Shown: piece after piece, positions 1-37,952 of the stretch
Position numbering within the stretch: the stretch's first letter is position 1
How the letters are laid out: each line of letters opens with the position of its first letter
NCBI GenBank assembly: GCA_964195995.1
Contig: CAXMQS010000036.1
Location: 31,116 to 95,115 of the forward strand
From: an uncultured Acidimicrobiia bacterium
GTDB taxonomy: Bacteria; Actinomycetota; Acidimicrobiia; Spongiisociales; JAOTWH01
Length of the DNA stretch: 64,000 nt
Direction of reading: 5' to 3'
Notes under the pieces: model-generated
Told to the model about the DNA's origin: nothing
The model's input: only the letters and a program-made list of their open reading frames with translations
The model's database searches: none
Program-made: the position numbers and the translations under genes

Positions 1-180
1 CTGTTGACCGAGCGTATCGACCACCTCACCGAGCACTTGAAGGATCACAAAGGTGACCATCACGGCCGTAGAGGACTGTTGATCATGGTGGGACGGAGGC
101 GCCGGCTCCTCGACTACTTGAACTCCAAGGACGTCGAGCGGTATCGAAACCTCATCGCCCGATTGGGGCTGCGGAGGTAA
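1..180 (+). CDS. rpsO: 30S ribosomal protein S15, C-terminal part (5' end outside window)
   Basis: Frame 1 translates to [58 protein letters not shown], a typical S15 C-terminus. It sits immediately upstream of pnp, the conserved rpsO-pnp arrangement. Confidence 0.8.
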
Positions 181-322: not shown

Positions 323-2785
323 GTGTCTGAACACACAGTGTCAGGCTCCGTGGGTGGCAAAGAGCTCACCCTCAACACCGGCAAGCTTGCCTTGCTGGCC
401 GACGGAGCCGTAGTCGTCACCATGGGTGACACCGAGGTCCTCGTGACCGCAACCGCATCGCGCGGAATGCGGCCCGGCCAGGACTTCTTCCCACTAACAG
501 TCGATGTCGAAGAGCGCATGTACGCCGTTGGCAAGATCCCCGGCTCGTTCTTCCGTCGTGAGGGCCGAGCGACCGATCGCGCGACTCTCACCTGCAGGCT
601 CATCGACCGTCCGCTGCGTCCATCGTTCCGCGATGGCTATATGTCGGAGACCCACGTCGTGGCGACTGTTCTGGCCGTCGACGGCGAGCTGGATTACGAC
701 GTGCTCGCCCTCAATGGAGCGTCGGCCGCACTGACCATCAGCGGACTTCCGTTCGAAGGACCGATCGGCGCCATCCGGTTGGCCCTCAAAGATGGCAACT
801 GGATCGCCAACCCCACATACGAAGATCTCGGTGAGAGCGTCTTCGAGATCGTGGTGGCCGGCACTCGCAATGCCGACGGCGCTATCGACATCAACATGGT
901 CGAGGCCGGAGCGACCGAAGAGGGCTACCGGCTCGTACAGGCCGGTCAGCCTGCTTCCAACGAAGAGAGCGTCGCTCAGGGCCTTGAAGAGGCCAAGACA
1001 TACATCGCCGAGAGCATTGATCTGCAGCTCGCCCTAAAGGCGAAGCTCGGCGACATCGCTGAAGTCGAGCTCGCAACAGTCGAGACCTACAGCCCCGAGA
1101 TCTTGGAGCAGGTCAAGAGCCATGTCGGCTCCTCCGTCTCCGAGGCGGCGACCATCGCCGATAAGAAGGAACGCAAGGACGCTGAGAAGAAGGCTCTCGA
1201 AGGCGCCATTGAGGCCATGGGCCTCGCCGAGGACGACGTCGATGGGCGCAAGCAGGCCGCAGCTGCGTTCAAGTCGGTATCCAAGGAGGCCATGCGCAGA
1301 CGTGTCATCGACGACGGCATCCGGCTTGACGGCCGCAAGCCAGACGAGATCCGCGAGCTGTCCGCAGAGGTTGGGCTGATCAATCGCACCCACGGCACCG
1401 GCCTGTTCCAACGTGGACAGACCCAGGTCCTTTCGGTGGCGACACTCGGCATGCTGCGCATGGAACAGATGCTCGACACGATCCATCCGGAAGAGTCGAA
1501 GCGCTACATGCACCACTACAACTTCCCGCACTACTCCACAGGAGAGACCGGGTTCATGCGTGGTCCCAAGCGCCGTGAGATTGGCCACGGGTTCCTCGCC
1601 GAGAAGGCGCTGCTTCCGGTGATCCCCAATGCAGACGACTTTCCGTACGCCATCCGTGTGGTCTCGGACGTCATGACTTCCAACGGCTCGACATCGATGG
1701 CGTCCGTTTGTGGATCCAGCCTGTCGCTGATGGACGCCGGTGTTCCGATCGCCGCCCCAGTCGGCGGCATTGCCATGGGCCTCATCGCTCATGACGACGG
1801 GTTCATCACGCTGACGGACATCCTCGGAGCCGAGGATGCCCTTGGCGACATGGACTTCAAGGTGGCAGGGACGGCGGACATGATCACCGCCCTCCAGCTC
1901 GACACCAAGATCGCCGGGTTGCCGGCCGATGTGCTCATCGGGGCACTGGCGGCGGCCAAGGTGGCCCGCCTTCAGGTGTTGGCTGCCATGGCAGAGGCGC
2001 TCCCGGCCCCTCGTGAGGAGCTCAACAAGAACGCTCCACGCATCGAGGCTGTCAGCATTCCCAAGGACAAGATCGGCGAGATCATCGGGCCCAAGGGCAA
2101 GATGATCCGCGAGATCGAAGAGCTCACCGGCGCCACCCTCGACATCGAGGACGACGGCACCGTCATCATCGGTGCGGTCAGCGGCGAAGAGCTCGAGGCG
2201 GCGAAGGAGAAGGTCCTCGAGATCGCCTTCCCTCCAGACGTCGAGCTCGGAGAGGTGTACGACGGCGAAGTTGTGAACATCACCAAGTTCGGTGCCTTCA
2301 TCAACCTGATCGCCAACCGCGACGGCCTGCTCCACATCTCCAAGATGGGTGGCGGCCGCCGTATCGAGAACGTCGAGGACGAGTACACGATGGGCGACAA
2401 GATCAAGGTCATCGTTCGCGAGATCGATGACCGCGGCAAGGTCAGCCTCGACCTCGCAGACGCCCCCCAGGGCGGCGGCGACAAGCCGGCCAGAGAGAGC
2501 GGCAACGGCGACCGCGGTCGCTCCGGCGGCGGCGGTCGTGATCGTGAGCCCCGTGGCGGCGGTCGTGATCGTGGCGGCGACGGCGGCGGACGCGAATCCG
2601 GCGGCGGCGGTGGCGGACGCGAGTCCCGCGGCGGCGGTCGTGATCGCGACGGTGGCGGCAGGGGCCGCGACCGTGGCGGCGATAGCGGCGGCAGCCGCGA
2701 CACCGGAGGCGACAGCAAGCCCGCAGGCGGCAAGGCCCGCAAGCAGGTGTCCTTCTCCGACGAGTTCGACGCCGGCGAGAAGTAG
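323..2785 (+). CDS. pnp: polynucleotide phosphorylase with an Arg/Gly/Asp-rich low-complexity C-terminal extension
   Basis: The long ORF shows the RNase PH-like domains, KH domain and S1 domain (…GEVVNITKFGAFINLIANRDGLLHISK…). The probable start is GTG at 323, preceded by GGAGA at 314-318, and the product begins VSEHTVSGSVGGKELTLNTGKLA. The listed ORF start at 233 is likely too early. Confidence 0.9.
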   Translation: MSEHTVSGSVGGKELTLNTGKLALLADGAVVVTMGDTEVLVTATASRGMRPGQDFFPLTVDVEERMYAVGKIPGSFFRREGRATDRATLTCRLIDRPLRPSFRDGYMSETHVVATVLAVDGELDYDVLALNGASAALTISGLPFEGPIGAIRLALKDGNWIANPTYEDLGESVFEIVVAGTRNADGAIDINMVEAGATEEGYRLVQAGQPASNEESVAQGLEEAKTYIAESIDLQLALKAKLGDIAEVELATVETYSPEILEQVKSHVGSSVSEAATIADKKERKDAEKKALEGAIEAMGLAEDDVDGRKQAAAAFKSVSKEAMRRRVIDDGIRLDGRKPDEIRELSAEVGLINRTHGTGLFQRGQTQVLSVATLGMLRMEQMLDTIHPEESKRYMHHYNFPHYSTGETGFMRGPKRREIGHGFLAEKALLPVIPNADDFPYAIRVVSDVMTSNGSTSMASVCGSSLSLMDAGVPIAAPVGGIAMGLIAHDDGFITLTDILGAEDALGDMDFKVAGTADMITALQLDTKIAGLPADVLIGALAAAKVARLQVLAAMAEALPAPREELNKNAPRIEAVSIPKDKIGEIIGPKGKMIREIEELTGATLDIEDDGTVIIGAVSGEELEAAKEKVLEIAFPPDVELGEVYDGEVVNITKFGAFINLIANRDGLLHISKMGGGRRIENVEDEYTMGDKIKVIVREIDDRGKVSLDLADAPQGGGDKPARESGNGDRGRSGGGGRDREPRGGGRDRGGDGGGRESGGGGGGRESRGGGRDRDGGGRGRDRGGDSGGSRDTGGDSKPAGGKARKQVSFSDEFDAGEK

Positions 2786-2811
2786 AAGACAGGCCATAGG
2801 CCATAAGGAAG

Positions 2812-2840
2812 AAAGCCCTCTCGGAAACGAGGGGGCTTTC
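2812..2840 (+). terminator. rho-independent terminator-like hairpin after pnp
   Basis: aaagccctctcg-gaaa-cgagggggcttt is a GC-rich stem with one G-U pair. It is followed by the T-containing run cttctat. Confidence 0.55.
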
Positions 2841-2903
2841 TTCTATGGCCCCCTCCCGAGGGTGGCGACTATCAGGGGGGAGAGCCTCCTCCTCCCGCCG
2901 TTC

Positions 2904-9977: not shown

Positions 9978-10604
9978 ATGGGATCCATGCCTGCTCTGGA
10001 CGGGCTCTTGGCGCTGGAGCCCGGCCGGGTCGTCGGCTTGACCGGTTCTGTTGGAGCCGGGATGACTCGCCTTGGGCTGTCGCTCATGGCCGAGGCCTCG
10101 CGGCGCGGTCCCGTCGCCTTCGTCGATGTGCGCGGCTGGTTGTGTCCTGTCTCCGCCTGGGAGAGCAGCATCGAGCCCGACCGGCTGGCCGTGGTGCGTT
10201 GCCCCGACCCCGGTCGCTGGCCCAAGGTGGTGGCGGCGTTGCTGGAGGGAATCCCCGCCGTCTACGCCGAGGTGCCAACAGGGGTCAGCGATGCCCTGTT
10301 GCGCCGGCTGGGGGCGTTGGCCCGCAATCGGCGCAGCTCCCTGCTGCTGCGACCGCTGCGGGGATCGCTGCCGTCTGGGTTGACCCATCTGCGCTTGGAG
10401 GGAAGGGGTATCGAGTGGGAAGGAACGGGCGACGGCCATGGCCGGCTGCGGAGCCGTCGTTTGCTTGTCGAGGCGTCTGGTAAGGCAACCGGGGGGATCC
10501 CTCGACTGATCGAGATCGAGGGAGGTGAATATGGAGCGGACGCTATGCGTGTGGTTCCCGGACTGGCCGCTGCGCCTGTTGGAGTCACCACCGCCGCCGG
10601 ATGA
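9978..10604 (+). CDS. imuA: ImuA (ImuA') mutasome accessory protein, RecA/SulA-like fold
   Basis: MGSMPALDGLLALEPGRVVGLTGSVGAGMTRLGLSLMAE… with a P-loop-like motif. It precedes imuB behind an SOS box. ATG at 9978 follows GGAGGG. Confidence 0.7.
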   Translation: MGSMPALDGLLALEPGRVVGLTGSVGAGMTRLGLSLMAEASRRGPVAFVDVRGWLCPVSAWESSIEPDRLAVVRCPDPGRWPKVVAALLEGIPAVYAEVPTGVSDALLRRLGALARNRRSSLLLRPLRGSLPSGLTHLRLEGRGIEWEGTGDGHGRLRSRRLLVEASGKATGGIPRLIEIEGGEYGADAMRVVPGLAAAPVGVTTAAG

Positions 10605-11997
10605 GCCCTACCAGGCGGTAGGGAGTGACAATCGGGTGGCAGCCGTCAACCCGGCTGCTGCTGCGGCTGGCGTTGCTCTTGGCATGTCCCGGCGCGAGGC
10701 GGAAGGGGTGTGCCCGACTGTGACGACCATCGTGCGTGACCTGGGGGCAGAGGCCGTGGCCTTCGAGGAGGTGGCGCGGGCGGTTGAAGATCTGGTGCCC
10801 CGTATCGAGCTTGCTGAGCCGGGGTTGCTGTTCGTACCAGTCACTGGAGCGGTCCGCTATTACGGGGGAGAGGAACCCCTTGTGGAGCGGCTATGCAAAG
10901 AGGTGGAGGGGGTGGCCGGCCCCGGAGCTCACCTCGGTCTGGCCGCCGGCCCCTTCGCCGCCCGTATGGCGGCGGACCACGCCACCGACGCCCCCTACAT
11001 CGTGGATGACGACGCCGCTTTCGTCGAGTCTCTTGACCTGTCGACGGTCGCCCCCGACGACCTGGTGGCCACTTTCCGCTGGCTGGGCATCAGCACGCTG
11101 GGGGAGCTGGCTCGCCTGCCGCGACCGGCCGTGCTGTCCCGCTTCGGTCCCGAGGGTTTGACCGCGCACCGGCTGGCATCGGGGGAGGACAGGGCGGCGA
11201 TGACCCGCCCCATCCCCGCCGACCTGGCCGTCGAGGAGCGCTTCTCCCCTCCGCTGGAGTCGCTGGAGCAGGCGGCTTTCGCGGCTCGGGCGCTGTCGGT
11301 GCGTCTGATCGAAGAGCTGGCGCGTTACGGGGCGATGCCGCACCGGGTCGAGGTAGAGGGGGAGTCGTCAACCGGGGTGGTGCGGAACCGGGTGTGGCGG
11401 AGTGCGGACCCATTCGGGGACACCGAGCTGGCGGAGCGGGTTCGCTGGCAGCTCGGATCATGGGTGGAGGGAGAGGGCATCGTCGGGGGGTTGGTGCGGC
11501 TGCGGTTAGCGCCTGCCGACCTCTCCGACGAGGGACGCCAGCTGGCGCTGCACGAGGACGCGGTGGCCCTGGCGGAGGCACAACGCTCGTTGCTGAGAGC
11601 GCAGTCGCTGGCTGGTCCCGACGCGGTGCTGGCTTCGGAGCCCCAGGGTGGCCGCGACCCCCAAGATCAGGTGCTGTGGCGCCGCTGGGGGGAGCAGGCC
11701 TCGCCGGTCCGCGACGCCGCAGCCCCGTGGCCGGGCCGGCTCCCGGGCCCGGCCCCGGCGTTGGTACCTCCGCAGCCACCTGCTCTCGATGTGGAGTGGG
11801 AGGCGGGGACGCCAACCAGGGTGCGGTTGGGCAGTCGCTGGGAGCCCATCCTGTCATGGGCAGGGCCGTGGCGACGGATGGGCAAGTGGTGGGAAGGGGA
11901 GGGTCACTGCGACCGCTACCAGCTGGTGACATCGGCCGGTGCCTTCCTCGTCGAGGTCGCGGCCGACGGTGCCCGGCTCACCGGCGTCTACGACTGA
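10531..11997 (+). CDS. imuB: ImuB, inactive Y-family polymerase-like mutasome scaffold
   Basis: N-terminus MERTLCVWFPDWPLRLLE… is typical of ImuB. ATG at 10531 follows GGAGG. It overlaps the imuA 3' end by about 74 nt. The proline-rich C-terminal half produces many antisense ORF artefacts. Confidence 0.75.
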   Translation: MERTLCVWFPDWPLRLLESPPPPDEPYQAVGSDNRVAAVNPAAAAAGVALGMSRREAEGVCPTVTTIVRDLGAEAVAFEEVARAVEDLVPRIELAEPGLLFVPVTGAVRYYGGEEPLVERLCKEVEGVAGPGAHLGLAAGPFAARMAADHATDAPYIVDDDAAFVESLDLSTVAPDDLVATFRWLGISTLGELARLPRPAVLSRFGPEGLTAHRLASGEDRAAMTRPIPADLAVEERFSPPLESLEQAAFAARALSVRLIEELARYGAMPHRVEVEGESSTGVVRNRVWRSADPFGDTELAERVRWQLGSWVEGEGIVGGLVRLRLAPADLSDEGRQLALHEDAVALAEAQRSLLRAQSLAGPDAVLASEPQGGRDPQDQVLWRRWGEQASPVRDAAAPWPGRLPGPAPALVPPQPPALDVEWEAGTPTRVRLGSRWEPILSWAGPWRRMGKWWEGEGHCDRYQLVTSAGAFLVEVAADGARLTGVYD

Positions 11998-12725
11998 TTC
12001 ACCTCGTCGAACAGCTTGTGGACTGTGGCTTCGGCCTCGTTGCGTACCCGATCGACGTCGGCGCCGGTCAAACCAGCGACCGAAATCGGAGGAGCCACCT
12101 TTACTCGCACGGTCGCCGGGCGAACGATCTTGCTGCCCGGGGGCCATGCCCGGCGTGAGCCAGACGATGTCGCCATCGGGATGATGTCAAGCCCGTTGTC
12201 TATGGCGATCCGGAACGCCCCTTTCTTGAAAGGCTGGAGGTTGCCGTCGCGAGTCCGGGTCCCCTCGGGGTAGATGATGATCGAGTGCCCAAGCGACACC
12301 GTCCGCTCGACTTGGCTGTTGATGTCGCGGTGGGCCGAGGCGTGGGCTTGGCGGTCGACCTTGATGAAGTCGAGATGGCGCAGCAGGTAGCCGAGGATGG
12401 GGACCTTGAACAGCTCCTTCTTGGCCATGTAGCGGATGGGGTTGCGGCAGGCCAGGAAGTGAGCCGGGATGTCGATGTTCGATTGGTGGTTGGAGACGAA
12501 CACATAGCTGCGGTCTGGGTCGATGTTGTCCTGCCCCTCGACACGAAGCTTTACTCCGATAATGGCGTGAAAGAGGCGGGCCCAGAAGTGAAGCATGCCG
12601 GTGATGAGGGTGGAACGGGGATTGAAGCGAGCGATGGTTGTCGCAACGACTCCGATGTAGATGGTGTTGAAGGCCATCACGGTGATGCCGACGGTGCTGC
12701 GCACCACTGCCACGAGGGTTCCCAC
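11988..12725 (-). CDS. plsC: 1-acyl-sn-glycerol-3-phosphate acyltransferase
   Basis: HQSNID (HX4D) and IYPEGTR motifs. Convergent 10-nt overlap with imuB. Confidence 0.8.
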   Translation of the reverse strand: MGTLVAVVRSTVGITVMAFNTIYIGVVATTIARFNPRSTLITGMLHFWARLFHAIIGVKLRVEGQDNIDPDRSYVFVSNHQSNIDIPAHFLACRNPIRYMAKKELFKVPILGYLLRHLDFIKVDRQAHASAHRDINSQVERTVSLGHSIIIYPEGTRTRDGNLQPFKKGAFRIAIDNGLDIIPMATSSGSRRAWPPGSKIVRPATVRVKVAPPISVAGLTGADVDRVRNEAEATVHKLFDEVNQS

Positions 12726-12747
12726 TGCGGTAGGCTACCCGGCCGCC

Positions 12748-13929
12748 ATGCCTGATCTCTCCCAGCTCGATGCTCGCCGCATCACCCTGCACGCGATGGG
12801 CTTCACCGCGCCGCGGCCGAGTGGCAAGGTCGATATCCGTCACGTCCGCAAGACGCTGGCCCGCCTGCGGGCCATTCAGATCGACTCGGTGAATGTCCTG
12901 GTCCGAGCCCACTACATGCCTCTCTTCTCCCGCCTCGGTCCCTACCGCATGCAGCTCCTTGACGAGCTGGTCTACAAGCGCAAGGAAGCCTTCGAGTACT
13001 GGGGGCATGTCGCATCATTCGTACCCGTCGAGTTCCTGCCGATGCTGCGCTTTCGGATGGAAGCGGAGAGATCGTGGATAAGCGACCTCCTCAAGAAGCA
13101 CCCGACCTACATCGACGACCTCATCTCCGAGGTCAAGCGCCGGGGGCCGATGACCGTGTCAGATCTGGAGGATCCCGGCAACCGCAGCGGGCCCTGGTGG
13201 GGGTGGGCACCGGGAAAGACCGCGCTCGAGTACTTATTCGTCAAAGGAGTGCTTGGGGTGCAAGACCGTCGGAACTTCGCTCGTGTGTATGACTTGTTCG
13301 AGAACACGGTTCCCGCCGAGCACTTCCGAAGCCCTGCATTGCCTCAAGCCGAAGCGCATCAGGCCCTGGCCGTTGAATCGGTGGCAGCTCTGGGGATAGG
13401 CACCTACGCCGACATCGCCGACTATTTCCGGCTTCCCCCCCGGGACGGGCAGAAGGCGATCGACGCACTGGTGGCGTCGGGCGATCTGGAACAGGTGACA
13501 GTCGACGGCTGGAAGCACCCGGCGTATGTGCTGGCGGGCACTGCGGTTCCGCGGAAGCGTTCTCAGGCTGCAGCGCTGCTGACGCCGTTCGACAACCTCA
13601 TCTGGCATCGCGATCGCACCGAGCGGCTGTTCGACTTCCACTACCGCATCGAGATCTACGTCCCGGAGCCGCAGCGGATCTACGGCTACTACGTGTTGCC
13701 GTTCCTGTTGGGGGAGAAGCTGGCGGCCCGCGTCGACCTCAAGGCAGACCGGCAGTCGAGCACGCTGCTGGTCAAGGGGGCCTGGGCCGAGGATGGAGCC
13801 GACCTCGACGAGGTTGCACCCCGGCTGGCAGGCGAGTTGGCGTTGATGGCCACGTGGCTGGAGCTCGACGACATCGCTGTTGGCCGCAAGGGGAACCTCG
13901 CCAACAAGGTGCGGAAGCTGTTGCTCTAG
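12748..13929 (+). CDS. YcaQ/AlkZ-like winged-helix DNA glycosylase family protein
   Basis: LARLRAIQIDSVNVLVRAHYMPLFSRLGPY… and DFHYRIEIYVPEPQRIYGYYVLPFL are characteristic of YcaQ/AlkZ-like proteins. ATG at 12748. Confidence 0.65.
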   Translation: MPDLSQLDARRITLHAMGFTAPRPSGKVDIRHVRKTLARLRAIQIDSVNVLVRAHYMPLFSRLGPYRMQLLDELVYKRKEAFEYWGHVASFVPVEFLPMLRFRMEAERSWISDLLKKHPTYIDDLISEVKRRGPMTVSDLEDPGNRSGPWWGWAPGKTALEYLFVKGVLGVQDRRNFARVYDLFENTVPAEHFRSPALPQAEAHQALAVESVAALGIGTYADIADYFRLPPRDGQKAIDALVASGDLEQVTVDGWKHPAYVLAGTAVPRKRSQAAALLTPFDNLIWHRDRTERLFDFHYRIEIYVPEPQRIYGYYVLPFLLGEKLAARVDLKADRQSSTLLVKGAWAEDGADLDEVAPRLAGELALMATWLELDDIAVGRKGNLANKVRKLLL

Positions 13930-34652: not shown

Positions 34653-37600
34653 ATGTATGCCGAGTTGCACTGTCACACCAACTACTCCTTTCAGGACGGG
34701 GCCTCGTGGGCAGAGGAGCTGGTGCAGCGGGCGGTCGATCTGGAGTACACGGCCCTGGCCGTCACCGACCACGATGGCTTTCGGGGGGCGGTCCGCTTCC
34801 ATCAGGCGGCCACTGTCACCGGGTTGCCGGCGGTGTATGGCACCGAAATCAGCATGGCGGCGAACGCCAACGAAGACCAAGACAAAGACCCGATACCAGG
34901 GCCGGGGGAGGCGGAGATAGCCGAGCCGGAGAAGCGGCGCGGGCGGACGCATCCGATGCACGGGTCGAAGCCGACGGCGATGGCGGAGGCCGATCATCTC
35001 GTCCTGTTGGCCTCCTCTCCCCAGGGTTATGGAGCCATCAGCCACTTGGTGTCCAAGGCCCAGTTCCGGGGACGCAAGGATCGTCCCGTCTACGACTGGG
35101 GCGATGTCGCGGAGGCCGCGGCCATCGGTGAATTGGTGGCGTTGTCTGGGTGCCACCAAGGGGCCATGGCGCGGGCGGCACAGGCCGGAGACCTCGACGG
35201 CGCGCTGCGAGAGGGCTCTCGCCTCAGGGAGATCTTCGGGGGTCGCTTCTACGTCGAGTTGTGGCATCACGGGATGCCCGAGGACGACCCGCGCAACGAT
35301 CTCATGGCCGAGGCCGCCCGTCGTCTCAATGCTCCAACCATCGCCACCAACAACGCCCACTACCACGACCGGTCGCAGGCGGACCTCTCCGAGGTTCTGG
35401 CCGCCATCGGCGGCAGGCGCGACCTCGACGCCAACGATGGATACCGGCCTGCCTCAGATGAGCGTTACCTCAAGTCTCCCCAAGAGATGGAGCAACGCTT
35501 CGCTCGCTATCCGGGGGCGGTGCGAAGGGCAGGGCGACTTGGGGCCGATCTTGCCTTTGACCTGGCGCTGGTAGCACCGCGGCTTCCCGACTACGGACTC
35601 CCCGGGTCGTTCACCACCGAGTCCGAATACCTGCGACACCTCGTGTTCGAGGGAGCTCAGGAGGTCTACCCAGACGGCGCCGGTGGCGTGGAGTGGCGGG
35701 CCGAGCAACGGCTCAACCACGAGCTGAAGGTCATAGAAGAGCTCGAGTTCGGTGGCTACTTCCTCGTGGTGTGGGACATCGTGCAGTTCGCACGGTCCCG
35801 CGACATCTATTGCCAGATCCGGGGCTCCGGTGCCGACTCTGCGGTGTGTCGCTGTCTCGGACTGACGAGGGTCGATCCGATACGCCTCAACCTGCCGTTC
35901 GAGCGCTTCCTCTCAGAGGAGCGGGCCCGCCCTCCGGACATCGACGTCGACTTCGAGGCGGAGCGCCGCGAGGAGGTCATCCAGTACTGCTACCAGCGCT
36001 ATGGACGGGAGCGGGCGGCCATGGTTGCCAACGTCATCACCTATCGAGCGCGGTCCGTGCTCCAGGACGTCGGCAAGGCGTTCGGGCTCACCCAGGCTCA
36101 GGTGAGCGGCCTCACCCGCTACGTAGACACCCGCAAGCCGCAGCGCTTGGCCGAGGAGCTCGAGTTGCCGCCGGGGCTGACGACCGACCTCATCTATGAC
36201 ATGTGTGCCCGACTCGACGGCTTCCCGAGGCACCTCGGCATCCACTCCGGGGGGATGGTGATGGCGGATCGCCCGTTATGGGAGGTGGTCCCGTTGGAGT
36301 GGGGGCGCATGGAGGATCGGTCGGTGCTGCAGTGGGACAAGGACGACTGTGCTGCCATGGGTGTCGTCAAGTTCGACCTCCTCGCCCTTGGCATGCTCAA
36401 CGCCCTCCACCTTGCGGTCGACATGATCGGCGACGCCCACGGTGTCGCTGTCGATCTGGCGACCATCGACCAGGAGCCGGTGATCTACGACATGCTCACC
36501 AAGGCAGACACGGTTGGCCTCTTCCAGGTGGAGTCGCGGGCTCAGATGGCGACCTTGCCTCGCATGAAGCCGAAGGACTTCTACGACTTGGCCATCGAGG
36601 TTGCCCTCATTCGCCCAGGCCCGATCCAGGGGCACTCAGTCCATCCGTTCCTGCGAAGGCGCAATGGCGAGGAGAAGGTGAGCTACCCCCACCCCCTGGC
36701 CGAGCCCATTCTCCGCAAGACGCTGGGAGTCCCCGTGTTCCAGGAGCAGCTCATGGAACTGGCAAGGGTGTGCGCGGGATTCTCGCCGGGTCAGTCAGAT
36801 CGGTTGCGCTCGGCGATGACCCACAAGCGGTCGGACGAAGCCATGGCCAAGCTCGCAGACGAGGTGTACGACGGCATGGCCCGTAATGGGATCACCGGGT
36901 CCGCCGCAGACGAGATATGGGAGAAGCTGCAGGGGTTCGCCTCGTTCGGCTTCCCCGAGAGTCACTCGGTTTCGTTCGCCTACATCGTCTACGCCTCGGC
37001 CTGGCTCAAGTACCACTGGCCGACCGAGTTCCTGGCGGGGTTGCTCAACGCCCAGCCCATGGGCTTCTACAGCCCCAACACGCTGGCGCAGGACGCCATC
37101 CGCCATGGGGTGGTGGTTCTTGCCCCCGACATCAACACTGCCGAGTTCGACTGCACCATCGAGCACATCGATACCGACCCCAACGACATCGCCATCTACT
37201 ACGGACTGAGCTGGCGTCGGGGGAGAGGACCCACCGATGATCCCGTTCGTCCGGCAACCGCGGTGCGACTCGGCCTTCGCTACGTCCGCAACCTGGGGGA
37301 GGCCGAGATCGCCCGCATCGAGGCCGCCCGTCAGGTTGGCGGTCCCTTTTCGTCTGCCGAGGACCTGGCGCAGCGCACCGGCCTCGACGCCGGCGGTCTC
37401 GAGGGTCTGGCGGCAGCGGGTGCCCTCGGCTCGGTTGGCATGGGAAGGCGTGATGGGATCTGGGCAGCAGGGGCCCTTGCCGACCTCGGTCCGGGGCGGC
37501 TGGCCATCTCCGAGGGTGCCGTTGCCCCATCGCTTGGCGAAATGGAGCCGTATCAGGCTCACCAGGCCGACCTGTGGTCGACGGGGGTGTCGTCGACGCA

Positions 37601-37952
37601 CCCGGTCCACTTCGCCCGCCCCGTTCTCGCCGACCGGGGCTGCTTCACCGTTGCCGACGCCCTTGTGAAGAAGCGTCACGGCATCAGGGCCAAGGTCGGC
37701 GGCATCATCACCCACCGCCAGCGTCCCGGCACCGCCAAAGGCATTCGCTTTCTCAACCTCGAGGACGAGACCGGTCTCCTCAACGTCGTCGTGATGCCCC
37801 AGGTGTGGGACCAGAACTACGAGATCGCCCGCAAGGCAGTCGGGGTGATCATCGAAGGACGCCTCGAGTTCCGCGACGGCGTCACCAACCTGGTCGCCCA
37901 CCGTTTCTGGGAGTGGCCGGTAGATGGAGTGAAGAGCCGCGACTTCCGATAG
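34653..37952 (+). CDS. dnaE2: error-prone DNA polymerase III alpha subunit DnaE2 (ImuC)
   Basis: 1099 aa. PHP domain MYAELHCHTNYSFQDGAS, pol IIIalpha palm/fingers, and an OB domain at the C-terminus. SOS box upstream. Confidence 0.9.
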   Translation: MYAELHCHTNYSFQDGASWAEELVQRAVDLEYTALAVTDHDGFRGAVRFHQAATVTGLPAVYGTEISMAANANEDQDKDPIPGPGEAEIAEPEKRRGRTHPMHGSKPTAMAEADHLVLLASSPQGYGAISHLVSKAQFRGRKDRPVYDWGDVAEAAAIGELVALSGCHQGAMARAAQAGDLDGALREGSRLREIFGGRFYVELWHHGMPEDDPRNDLMAEAARRLNAPTIATNNAHYHDRSQADLSEVLAAIGGRRDLDANDGYRPASDERYLKSPQEMEQRFARYPGAVRRAGRLGADLAFDLALVAPRLPDYGLPGSFTTESEYLRHLVFEGAQEVYPDGAGGVEWRAEQRLNHELKVIEELEFGGYFLVVWDIVQFARSRDIYCQIRGSGADSAVCRCLGLTRVDPIRLNLPFERFLSEERARPPDIDVDFEAERREEVIQYCYQRYGRERAAMVANVITYRARSVLQDVGKAFGLTQAQVSGLTRYVDTRKPQRLAEELELPPGLTTDLIYDMCARLDGFPRHLGIHSGGMVMADRPLWEVVPLEWGRMEDRSVLQWDKDDCAAMGVVKFDLLALGMLNALHLAVDMIGDAHGVAVDLATIDQEPVIYDMLTKADTVGLFQVESRAQMATLPRMKPKDFYDLAIEVALIRPGPIQGHSVHPFLRRRNGEEKVSYPHPLAEPILRKTLGVPVFQEQLMELARVCAGFSPGQSDRLRSAMTHKRSDEAMAKLADEVYDGMARNGITGSAADEIWEKLQGFASFGFPESHSVSFAYIVYASAWLKYHWPTEFLAGLLNAQPMGFYSPNTLAQDAIRHGVVVLAPDINTAEFDCTIEHIDTDPNDIAIYYGLSWRRGRGPTDDPVRPATAVRLGLRYVRNLGEAEIARIEAARQVGGPFSSAEDLAQRTGLDAGGLEGLAAAGALGSVGMGRRDGIWAAGALADLGPGRLAISEGAVAPSLGEMEPYQAHQADLWSTGVSSTHPVHFARPVLADRGCFTVADALVKKRHGIRAKVGGIITHRQRPGTAKGIRFLNLEDETGLLNVVVMPQVWDQNYEIARKAVGVIIEGRLEFRDGVTNLVAHRFWEWPVDGVKSRDFR

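Follow-up and report, generated by a model that had tools for sequence, protein, structure and literature searches.

To our knowledge, every characterised bacterial degradosome treats polynucleotide phosphorylase (PNPase) as a folded client, caught by motifs in the disordered tail of another protein. In these assemblies the motif lies in the disordered tail of RNase E and is received by the folded core of PNPase (PMC2723993; PMC3964918), the link being microdomain 1021-1061 in E. coli RNase E (PMC2723993), while motif-mediated PNPase complexes are formed through the cyanobacterial nonapeptide RRRRRRSSA and the Caulobacter GWW motif (PMC3964918). Further, mycobacterial PNPase contacts RhlE1, RNase J and the intrinsically disordered regions of RNase E (PMC12767347). 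The PNPase gene (pnp) considered here lies near the start of a 64,000-nucleotide (nt) stretch of contig CAXMQS010000036.1 from an uncultured Acidimicrobiia bacterium, hereafter the window, and encodes an enzyme that continues past its S1 domain into a long two-part tail, in which a hypervariable linker predicted to be disordered is followed by a conserved acidic-aromatic motif with the core VSFEDEFE. As in the RNase E degradosomes of E. coli, Caulobacter and cyanobacteria, a short linear motif in a long, disordered and charged region would link PNPase to RNA decay; here, however, PNPase itself bears both the disordered region and the motif, which would amount to a reversed polarity if docking holds true. 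The motif is unlike any described PNPase-related motif. We favour, at a probability of roughly 45%, the reading that the tail is a flexible spacer with a docking helix that tethers PNPase to a partner in trans.

By analogy, the layout also recalls that of SSB and FtsZ, in which the terminal peptide is the docking site while the length and sequence of the linker drift. The likeness extends to an oligomeric folded core, a hypervariable disordered linker and a conserved C-terminal peptide and, for SSB, to an acidic tip with aromatics placed after an oligonucleotide/oligosaccharide-binding (OB) fold, since S1 is itself an OB fold. However, these are other protein families without homology to PNPase, and the PNPase motif is internal in other Acidimicrobiales. 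A low-complexity, disordered tail after S1 is likewise found in another exoribonuclease, RNase R, where the tail mediates contacts with the ribosome and tmRNA-SmpB; that tail, however, is cationic through its many Lys residues and lacks a conserved acidic terminal motif.

A variable linker and a conserved motif behind the S1 domain

Coordinates refer to the window, and residue numbers count from the GTG codon at position 323. The features of the locus are the following.

1-179, forward strand: 3' end of rpsO (ribosomal protein S15), upstream of pnp; its reading frame ends at 179.
233/323-2785, forward strand: open reading frame (ORF) of pnp, with two candidate start codons.
323-2458, forward strand: core of pnp, encoding the first RNase PH domain, the alpha-helical PNPase domain, the second RNase PH domain, KH (residues 576-632) and S1 (residues 640-709).
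2459-2737, forward strand: hypervariable disordered linker (residues 713-805), an Arg/Gly/Asp-rich, near-neutral and well-mixed polyampholyte.
2522-2691, forward strand: degenerate tandem DNA repeats encoding the linker, found by Tandem Repeats Finder, a repeat-family search and an exact pattern search.
2738-2782, forward strand: conserved C-terminal short linear motif (residues 806-820), RKQVSFSDEFDAGEK, with the class consensus R-x-V-V-S-F-E-D-E-F-E-x-G-[LF].
2783-2785, forward strand: TAG stop codon of pnp; DNA conservation with the close relatives L081 and L083 collapses directly downstream.
2799-2850, forward strand: terminator-like hairpin with an inner stem of about 17 bp, a GAAA loop and an outer stem from an AGGCCAT repeat.

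Beyond S1 the protein runs on for 108 residues (713-820; nt 2459-2782), of which 37% are Gly, 17% Arg and 13% Asp, and the translation is exactly the peptide quoted in a preliminary description of this DNA made from the letters alone. That description had placed an Arg/Gly/Asp-rich extension of about 100 residues past the canonical end of PNPase, and it was right to do so, as the match to PNPase family models and solved structures ends between residues 708 and 731. The best 120 homologues listed from 5.8 billion proteins are PNPases of 62-94% identity, the source-named members being labelled as Acidimicrobiia or Actinomycetota metagenome-assembled genomes. Anchored on the end of S1, tails of 69-127 residues are present in 118 of these 120, the two exceptions being annotated as partial, and all 118 complete sequences carry both tail and motif. 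While the preliminary description gave the composition of the tail correctly, it overlooked the two-part build and the RxVVSFEDEFExG motif.

Anchored on its serine, the motif reads K-P-G-R-[TK]-V-V-S-F-E-D-[ED]-F-E-x-G-[LF]. In an alignment of 113 homologues, to which the linker and tail statistics refer unless stated otherwise, three positions of the tail alone are invariant (R806, S810 and F811), and V809, E812, D813, F815 and E816 are conserved at 90% or more. The 11-residue motif has a mean pairwise identity of 81%, compared with 77% for the last 150 residues of the KH/S1 region and with 46% for the linker, where shuffled linkers already reach 36%. Such a pattern, that of the hypervariable linker and constant terminal peptide of SSB and FtsZ, marks the motif as being under strong purifying selection and as the only sequence-constrained element of the tail. 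Five of its residues are acidic and three are basic. Searched against 1.84 billion representative proteins, a profile of the motif region gave nine matches, mostly C-terminal PNPase fragments, and at the sensitivity of that search the motif is specific to PNPase; six-frame scans of the window revealed no other motif-bearing or Arg/Gly/Asp-tailed protein.

A divergent PNPase 3' end on a Logan contig (L084; SRR7042100, 1-3029; ORF 3-506) ends in RKVVTFQDEYE and thus keeps a form of the motif on a tail that is not Arg/Gly/Asp-rich; therefore the motif, and not the composition, is the constant. The same contig holds, about 1.3 kb downstream of the PNPase 3' end, an orphan ORF of 211 residues (P0128; 1833-2468) with the canonical SRKVVSFEDEFESGS at its end, which is the apparent exception among the nine profile matches. 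A search of 5.8 billion proteins yielded no homologue of this ORF, and the two motif-coding regions on the 3-kb contig are not linked by any att-like DNA repeat. The ORF may be chimeric, a relic of a pnp end or a second protein with the motif, and it was not accepted as evidence for a second motif-bearing family.

The linker, 55-112 residues long, has a pooled composition of 25% Arg, 25% Gly, 17% Asp, 8% Ser and 6.5% Glu, with Ala (3.7%) and Pro (4.5%) scarce, hydrophobics at about 2.5%, Tyr and Trp at 0% and Phe at 0.1%. GC drift alone cannot explain this composition, because Ala and Pro are scarce despite their GC-rich codons in a window of 64% GC. About half of the residues are charged, yet the net charge is only +3.3 +/- 2.5 (+4 in the window), the counts of positive and negative residues correlate across the homologues (r = 0.80), and the charges alternate from residue to residue, as in RDRDRGG. 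The charge-patterning parameter kappa is 0.10 in the window, against 0.15 +/- 0.04 for shuffles, and its median over the 113 tails is also 0.10. Charge balance and a kappa of about 0.10 are what would be expected of an expanded spacer. Composition is thus maintained, whereas sequence and length are not. A search with the linker alone (residues 713-805) against 5.8 billion proteins returned 4154 word-sharing candidates, none of them at E <= 1e-3.

At the DNA level, the tandem-repeat encoding proposed in the preliminary description is present in a degenerate rather than a clean form, with Tandem Repeats Finder reporting imperfect arrays in which a 27-nt period recurs in 6 copies at 67% matches and a 75-nt period in 2 copies at 81%. 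The 19-nt unit GGCGGCGGTCGTGATCGYG does occur in three copies by exact search (0 of 100 shuffles matched), the first two where they had been placed (2528-2546 and 2555-2573) and the third at 2630-2648 instead of 2632-2649, a shift of 1-2 nt. Exact tandem peptide repeats that are lineage-specific, such as DRGDRQRRD x6, GRGDRERRD x5 and RDRGG x6, are found in 36 of the 113 tails. They fit a linker that turns over quickly by in-frame slippage of GGC/CGN/GAY-rich repeats, and the slippage-driven length variability envisaged in the preliminary description agrees with the range of 69-127 residues seen among the 113 tails.

GC-rich degenerate repeats are of the kind poorly handled by assemblers and polymerases, and the sequence conservation of the linker is barely above the shuffled baseline, so that the tail might be suspected of arising artefactually, through a frameshift, read-through or a misassembled repeat, or of being junk in the form of a selectively neutral, GC-driven low-complexity extension. 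In a three-way DNA alignment of the window with two close relatives (L081 and L083), however, all gaps in the tail-coding region are multiples of 3; the end of S1 is near-identical, the middle of the tail carries many substitutions and gaps, and the last 15 or so codons are conserved again. Within these last codons the residues persist although synonymous codons are exchanged: the invariant Ser is encoded by TCC, TCG or AGT and the invariant Arg by CGC, CGT or CGG. Alignment with relatives shows a shared tail and neither a frameshift nor a stop after S1. The same architecture occurs in the 118 complete listed homologues, from many samples and from the NCBI, ENA, JGI and Logan archives; two independent records contain the same assembled sequence of the closest relative (P0001; core 97% identical); the motif and the stop codon are retained, and charge balance and composition are maintained across tails. 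A hairpin of -42.8 kcal/mol (z = -6.1 by RNA folding; 0 of 200 shuffles as stable), with terminator-like matches at 2816-2835, follows the stop. Because of the codon conservation, the in-frame gaps, the collapse after the stop and the hairpin beyond it, the tail can be taken as in frame and translated, and by all sequence indications it is a genuine C-terminal extension. An origin in frameshift or misassembly is rejected on the grounds of the tailed homologues, in-frame gaps, synonymous codons and hairpin, and the wider idea of an artefact or junk is very improbable.

Arg/Gly-rich composition and predicted disorder also suit the view of the preliminary description, in which the tail would be an RGG-type, RNA-binding and condensate-forming region that may make PNPase a phase-separating degradosome organiser; on this reading the motif would be secondary. 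The trimeric core would supply multivalency, and RG/RGG-containing tails recur on the PNPases of Chloroflexota, Solirubrobacterales and Coriobacteriia. An insertion of similarly unusual composition, enriched in Arg, Asp, Asn and Gly and bearing RxR motifs, occurs in the same phylum in another RNA-handling enzyme, the Rho of Actinomycetota, where it reportedly increases RNA affinity and has been predicted or shown to promote phase separation (PMC11347177); a recent preprint also links this insertion to phase separation (bioRxiv 10.1101/2025.08.28.672908). The Rho insertion differs in being internal, within the N-terminal domain, and in lacking a terminal motif of the VSFEDEFE type. Like eukaryotic RGG/RG boxes, the tail is Gly/Arg-rich and disordered, sits on an RNA-binding protein and holds one di-RGG (RGGGRDRGG, residues 744-752) together with a di-RG (RGRDRG, at residue 780). 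It differs from them in its interspersed acidic residues and in having no tri-RGG of the form RGG(X0-4)RGG(X0-4)RGG, which is present in 20 of the 113 homologue tails. We know of no arginine methylation of the eukaryotic RGG-box kind in bacteria.

Condensation of RNase E into bacterial ribonucleoprotein bodies, and its self-coacervation, are driven by the pattern of charge blocks. Of the features of such a scaffold, the PNPase tail has the long disordered region (predicted local distance difference test, pLDDT, below 50 over residues 716-820); it does not have the segregated blocks of opposite charge (kappa 0.10), nor several distinct client-binding motifs, the window's clade having one conserved motif. 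The linker is near-neutral and not cationic, contrary to the RGG-type tail first proposed, and offers no aromatic or other hydrophobic stickers; moreover, strong selection falls on the motif alone, which L084 retains without an Arg/Gly/Asp-rich linker. Neutrality, well-mixed charges and the want of aromatics do not by themselves favour self-condensation, which corrects a tempting over-reading of the composition, and we regard a condensate-forming tail with a secondary motif as unlikely.

Predicted structures bear on a further alternative. AlphaFold2 (AF2) folds the core confidently (pLDDT mostly >80), and in the full-length monomer, run with the 113-sequence alignment, assigns pLDDT 33-39 to residues 716-820, in keeping with the disorder first suggested. 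In a construct of KH, S1 and tail, linker values remain near 40 (33-43 over the two models together), the final 15 residues reach about 58, and a helix appears at positions 246-252, which correspond to residues 811-817 (FSDEFDA). Disorder is accordingly predicted for the tail, together with a nascent amphipathic helix over the motif. In SSB and Hfq, acidic tips act as nucleic-acid mimics, and the PNPase tip could in the same manner be an autoregulatory element that gates RNA access by folding, in cis or within the trimer, onto KH/S1 or the Arg-rich linker. The strongly acidic motif with its two conserved aromatics on a long flexible tether beside S1 would suit such a role, as would the small positive charge of the linker, which the motif roughly offsets, and the modelled gain of confidence and helicity of the motif over the linker in the truncated construct. 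However, no confident docking of the motif in cis was obtained in either monomer run, its confidence being at linker level in the full-length model and only about 58 in the construct, and the invariant Ser and Arg and the fixed F-x-x-x-F spacing are needless for pure charge mimicry. Autoregulation of this kind is therefore judged improbable.

The enzyme itself is an ordinary PNPase, and the appended tail module is what is new. Pfam identifies RNase_PH (in two stretches, 2.3e-52), PNPase, KH_1 and S1, in the domain order that defines a PNPase; the NCBIfam equivalog model NF008805 is passed at 899.9 bits (cutoff 471) and TIGR03591 at 862.8 bits (cutoff 525), and the top PDB match is 7ld5 (6e-220). 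The model of the actinobacterial GPSI/PNPase, TIGR02696, is hit at 879.9 bits, under its curated cutoff of 1106.75, and the window protein is thus a PNPase that falls short of the Streptomyces-type GPSI cutoff. Its start is likely GTG 323, giving 820 residues, with GGAG placed 5-6 nt upstream and in agreement with the N-termini and called lengths of homologues (817 residues in the closest relatives); for the same two reasons TTG 233 is unlikely as the start.

Close relatives (L081, L082 and L083) share the order rpsO-pnp, with Ribosomal_S15 called there by Pfam, and the window order rpsO, pnp, ABC, ABC recurs in P0001 as RidA-like, rpsO, pnp, ABC, ABC. Just past the pnp stop, AGGCCAT occurs twice as a 7-nt direct repeat (2791-2805) that makes the outer stem of the hairpin, which is without a clear U-run. 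An ORF of 587 residues lies antisense to pnp (1034-2797, reverse strand), and more open frames cross the repeats on both strands; such frames commonly arise as artefacts of high GC content and were not picked as coding by gene selection based on GC at third codon positions.

Distribution of PNPase tails

The preliminary description set the tail against canonical PNPases that end shortly after S1. The tail is not peculiar to this organism: it is universal in the sampled Acidimicrobiia, and Arg/Gly-rich tails occur on the PNPases of several other lineages.

Acidimicrobiia, the clade of the window: PNPase tail with the motif at its terminus.
Other Acidimicrobiales (L003-L007, L012 Candidatus Aldehydirespirator, L034, L049): motif internal, in the form [VAP]SFE[DA]x[FW]ExE.
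Micromonospora, Dactylosporangium, Glycomyces, Nocardiopsis and Actinomadura: tails of 50-89 residues with an RRRR-type tip, without the motif.
Solirubrobacterales: RDRDRGG tails of 50-76 residues.
Coriobacteriia: basic tails of 43-55 residues.
Chloroflexota (Anaerolineae and relatives): GGGDRR tails of 36-65 residues.
Streptomyces, Mycobacterium, Micrococcales and Propionibacteriales: 3-29 acidic residues after S1.

The motif is present in 10 of 10 Acidimicrobiia genome loci. Arg/Gly(/Asp)-rich PNPase tails, 36-76 residues long in the Solirubrobacterales and Chloroflexota sets, are widespread in these phyla, and only the motif is specific to Acidimicrobiia; the tail itself appears to be ancestral to the class. 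In the seven loci of other Acidimicrobiales with a complete tail, the internal motif is followed by [FYL]G[DEN]LGP and then by an Arg-rich C-terminus, so that these tails hold two or three elements (SFEDxFE, FGDLGP and an RRRR tip) where the clade of the window holds one. The multi-motif tail may represent a richer, possibly ancestral form.

A basic tip resembling RRRR(x)R(x)S ends the tails of L008-L011, L014 and L035 (Micromonosporales, Nocardiopsis, Actinomadura and Glycomyces) and of L004-L007, and is reminiscent of RRRRRRSSA, the PNPase-binding nonapeptide of cyanobacterial RNase E (PMC3964918). Solirubrobacterales and relatives (L047, L052, L058, L062, L075) have a conserved tail start of their own, DDPEIAGKS..EL, as have the Chloroflexota (L051, L053, L059, L064, L071-L073), with AVLEGWT.EEAR.

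A proposed tethered docking peptide

The tethered docking helix is favoured because SSB and FtsZ share the three-part layout and dock through their terminal peptide. As the motif is the only element of the tail that is constrained in sequence, it points to specific docking over generic RGG behaviour. Moreover, since the motif is internal in other Acidimicrobiales, a free C-terminus is not needed for its recognition, which argues against a degron or a PDZ-type tip.

The spacer (residues 713-805), flexible and expanded, would present the motif on each PNPase subunit. The motif (residues 806-820) would most likely fold into a short, acidic and amphipathic helix that places F811 and F815 on the same face, and this helix, we infer, would dock onto another macromolecule. 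PNPase being a homotrimer, three arms of about 90 residues, each tipped by a docking peptide, would confer multivalency and tether the enzyme to a partner in RNA decay or translation, with RNase E/G, RNase J, a DEAD-box helicase, Rho or the ribosome as candidates. RhlE1, RNase J and RNase E come first among the possible partners because mycobacterial PNPase contacts them. Further, RNA close to its entry at S1/KH may be contacted weakly and non-specifically by the Arg-rich spacer.

Several points weigh against such docking. Among the 20 ORFs checked in the window, which include ABC transporters, luciferase-like oxidoreductases, an ImuB-like protein, an AlkZ-like glycosylase, a DnaE2-like polymerase, a sigma factor and peptidases, no RNase E, RNase J or helicase stands out as a candidate partner. 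The acidic-aromatic tip could instead fold back onto the basic surfaces by which the enzyme itself binds RNA, and the AF2 monomers, in which the motif reaches a pLDDT of only about 58, speak neither for nor against docking to the trimer or to a partner. The literature searched held no experimental data on any Acidimicrobiia PNPase; within its incomplete coverage it also gave no description of a disordered C-terminal tail of PNPase or of the motif strings, and automatic disorder annotations for these PNPases probably exist.

Among the neighbouring genes, the ImuB-like IMS/Y-family protein (10525-11997, forward strand) and the DnaE2-like second Pol III alpha subunit (34653-37952, forward strand) lie 22 kb apart and do not form one cassette; the AlkZ-like DNA glycosylase is encoded at 12661-13929.

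Carried a step further, the tethered docking peptide could imply an inverted degradosome in Acidimicrobiia, in which the PNPase trimer and not RNase E bears the disordered arms and the VSFEDEFE docking helix, and in which three tethered motifs either bring in an oligomeric partner, for example RNase E/J, a helicase, Rho or the ribosome, or are themselves recruited to it, so as to build a multivalent, PNPase-organised network of RNA decay. We hold this extension to be doubtful. If it were true, the tails that combine SFEDxFE, FGDLGP and an RRRR tip would represent a richer form, ancestral and equipped with several sites for docking.

Overall, the motif of about 11-17 residues provides a concrete bait peptide (e.g. 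KPGRTVVSFEDEFEKGL) for the organisation of RNA decay in a lineage without an experimental model, and the class concerned comprises abundant, mostly uncultured Actinomycetota of soil and water. Further, a linker that evolves almost freely while its charge balance and the motif are held constitutes a natural test of what linker composition and motif each contribute.

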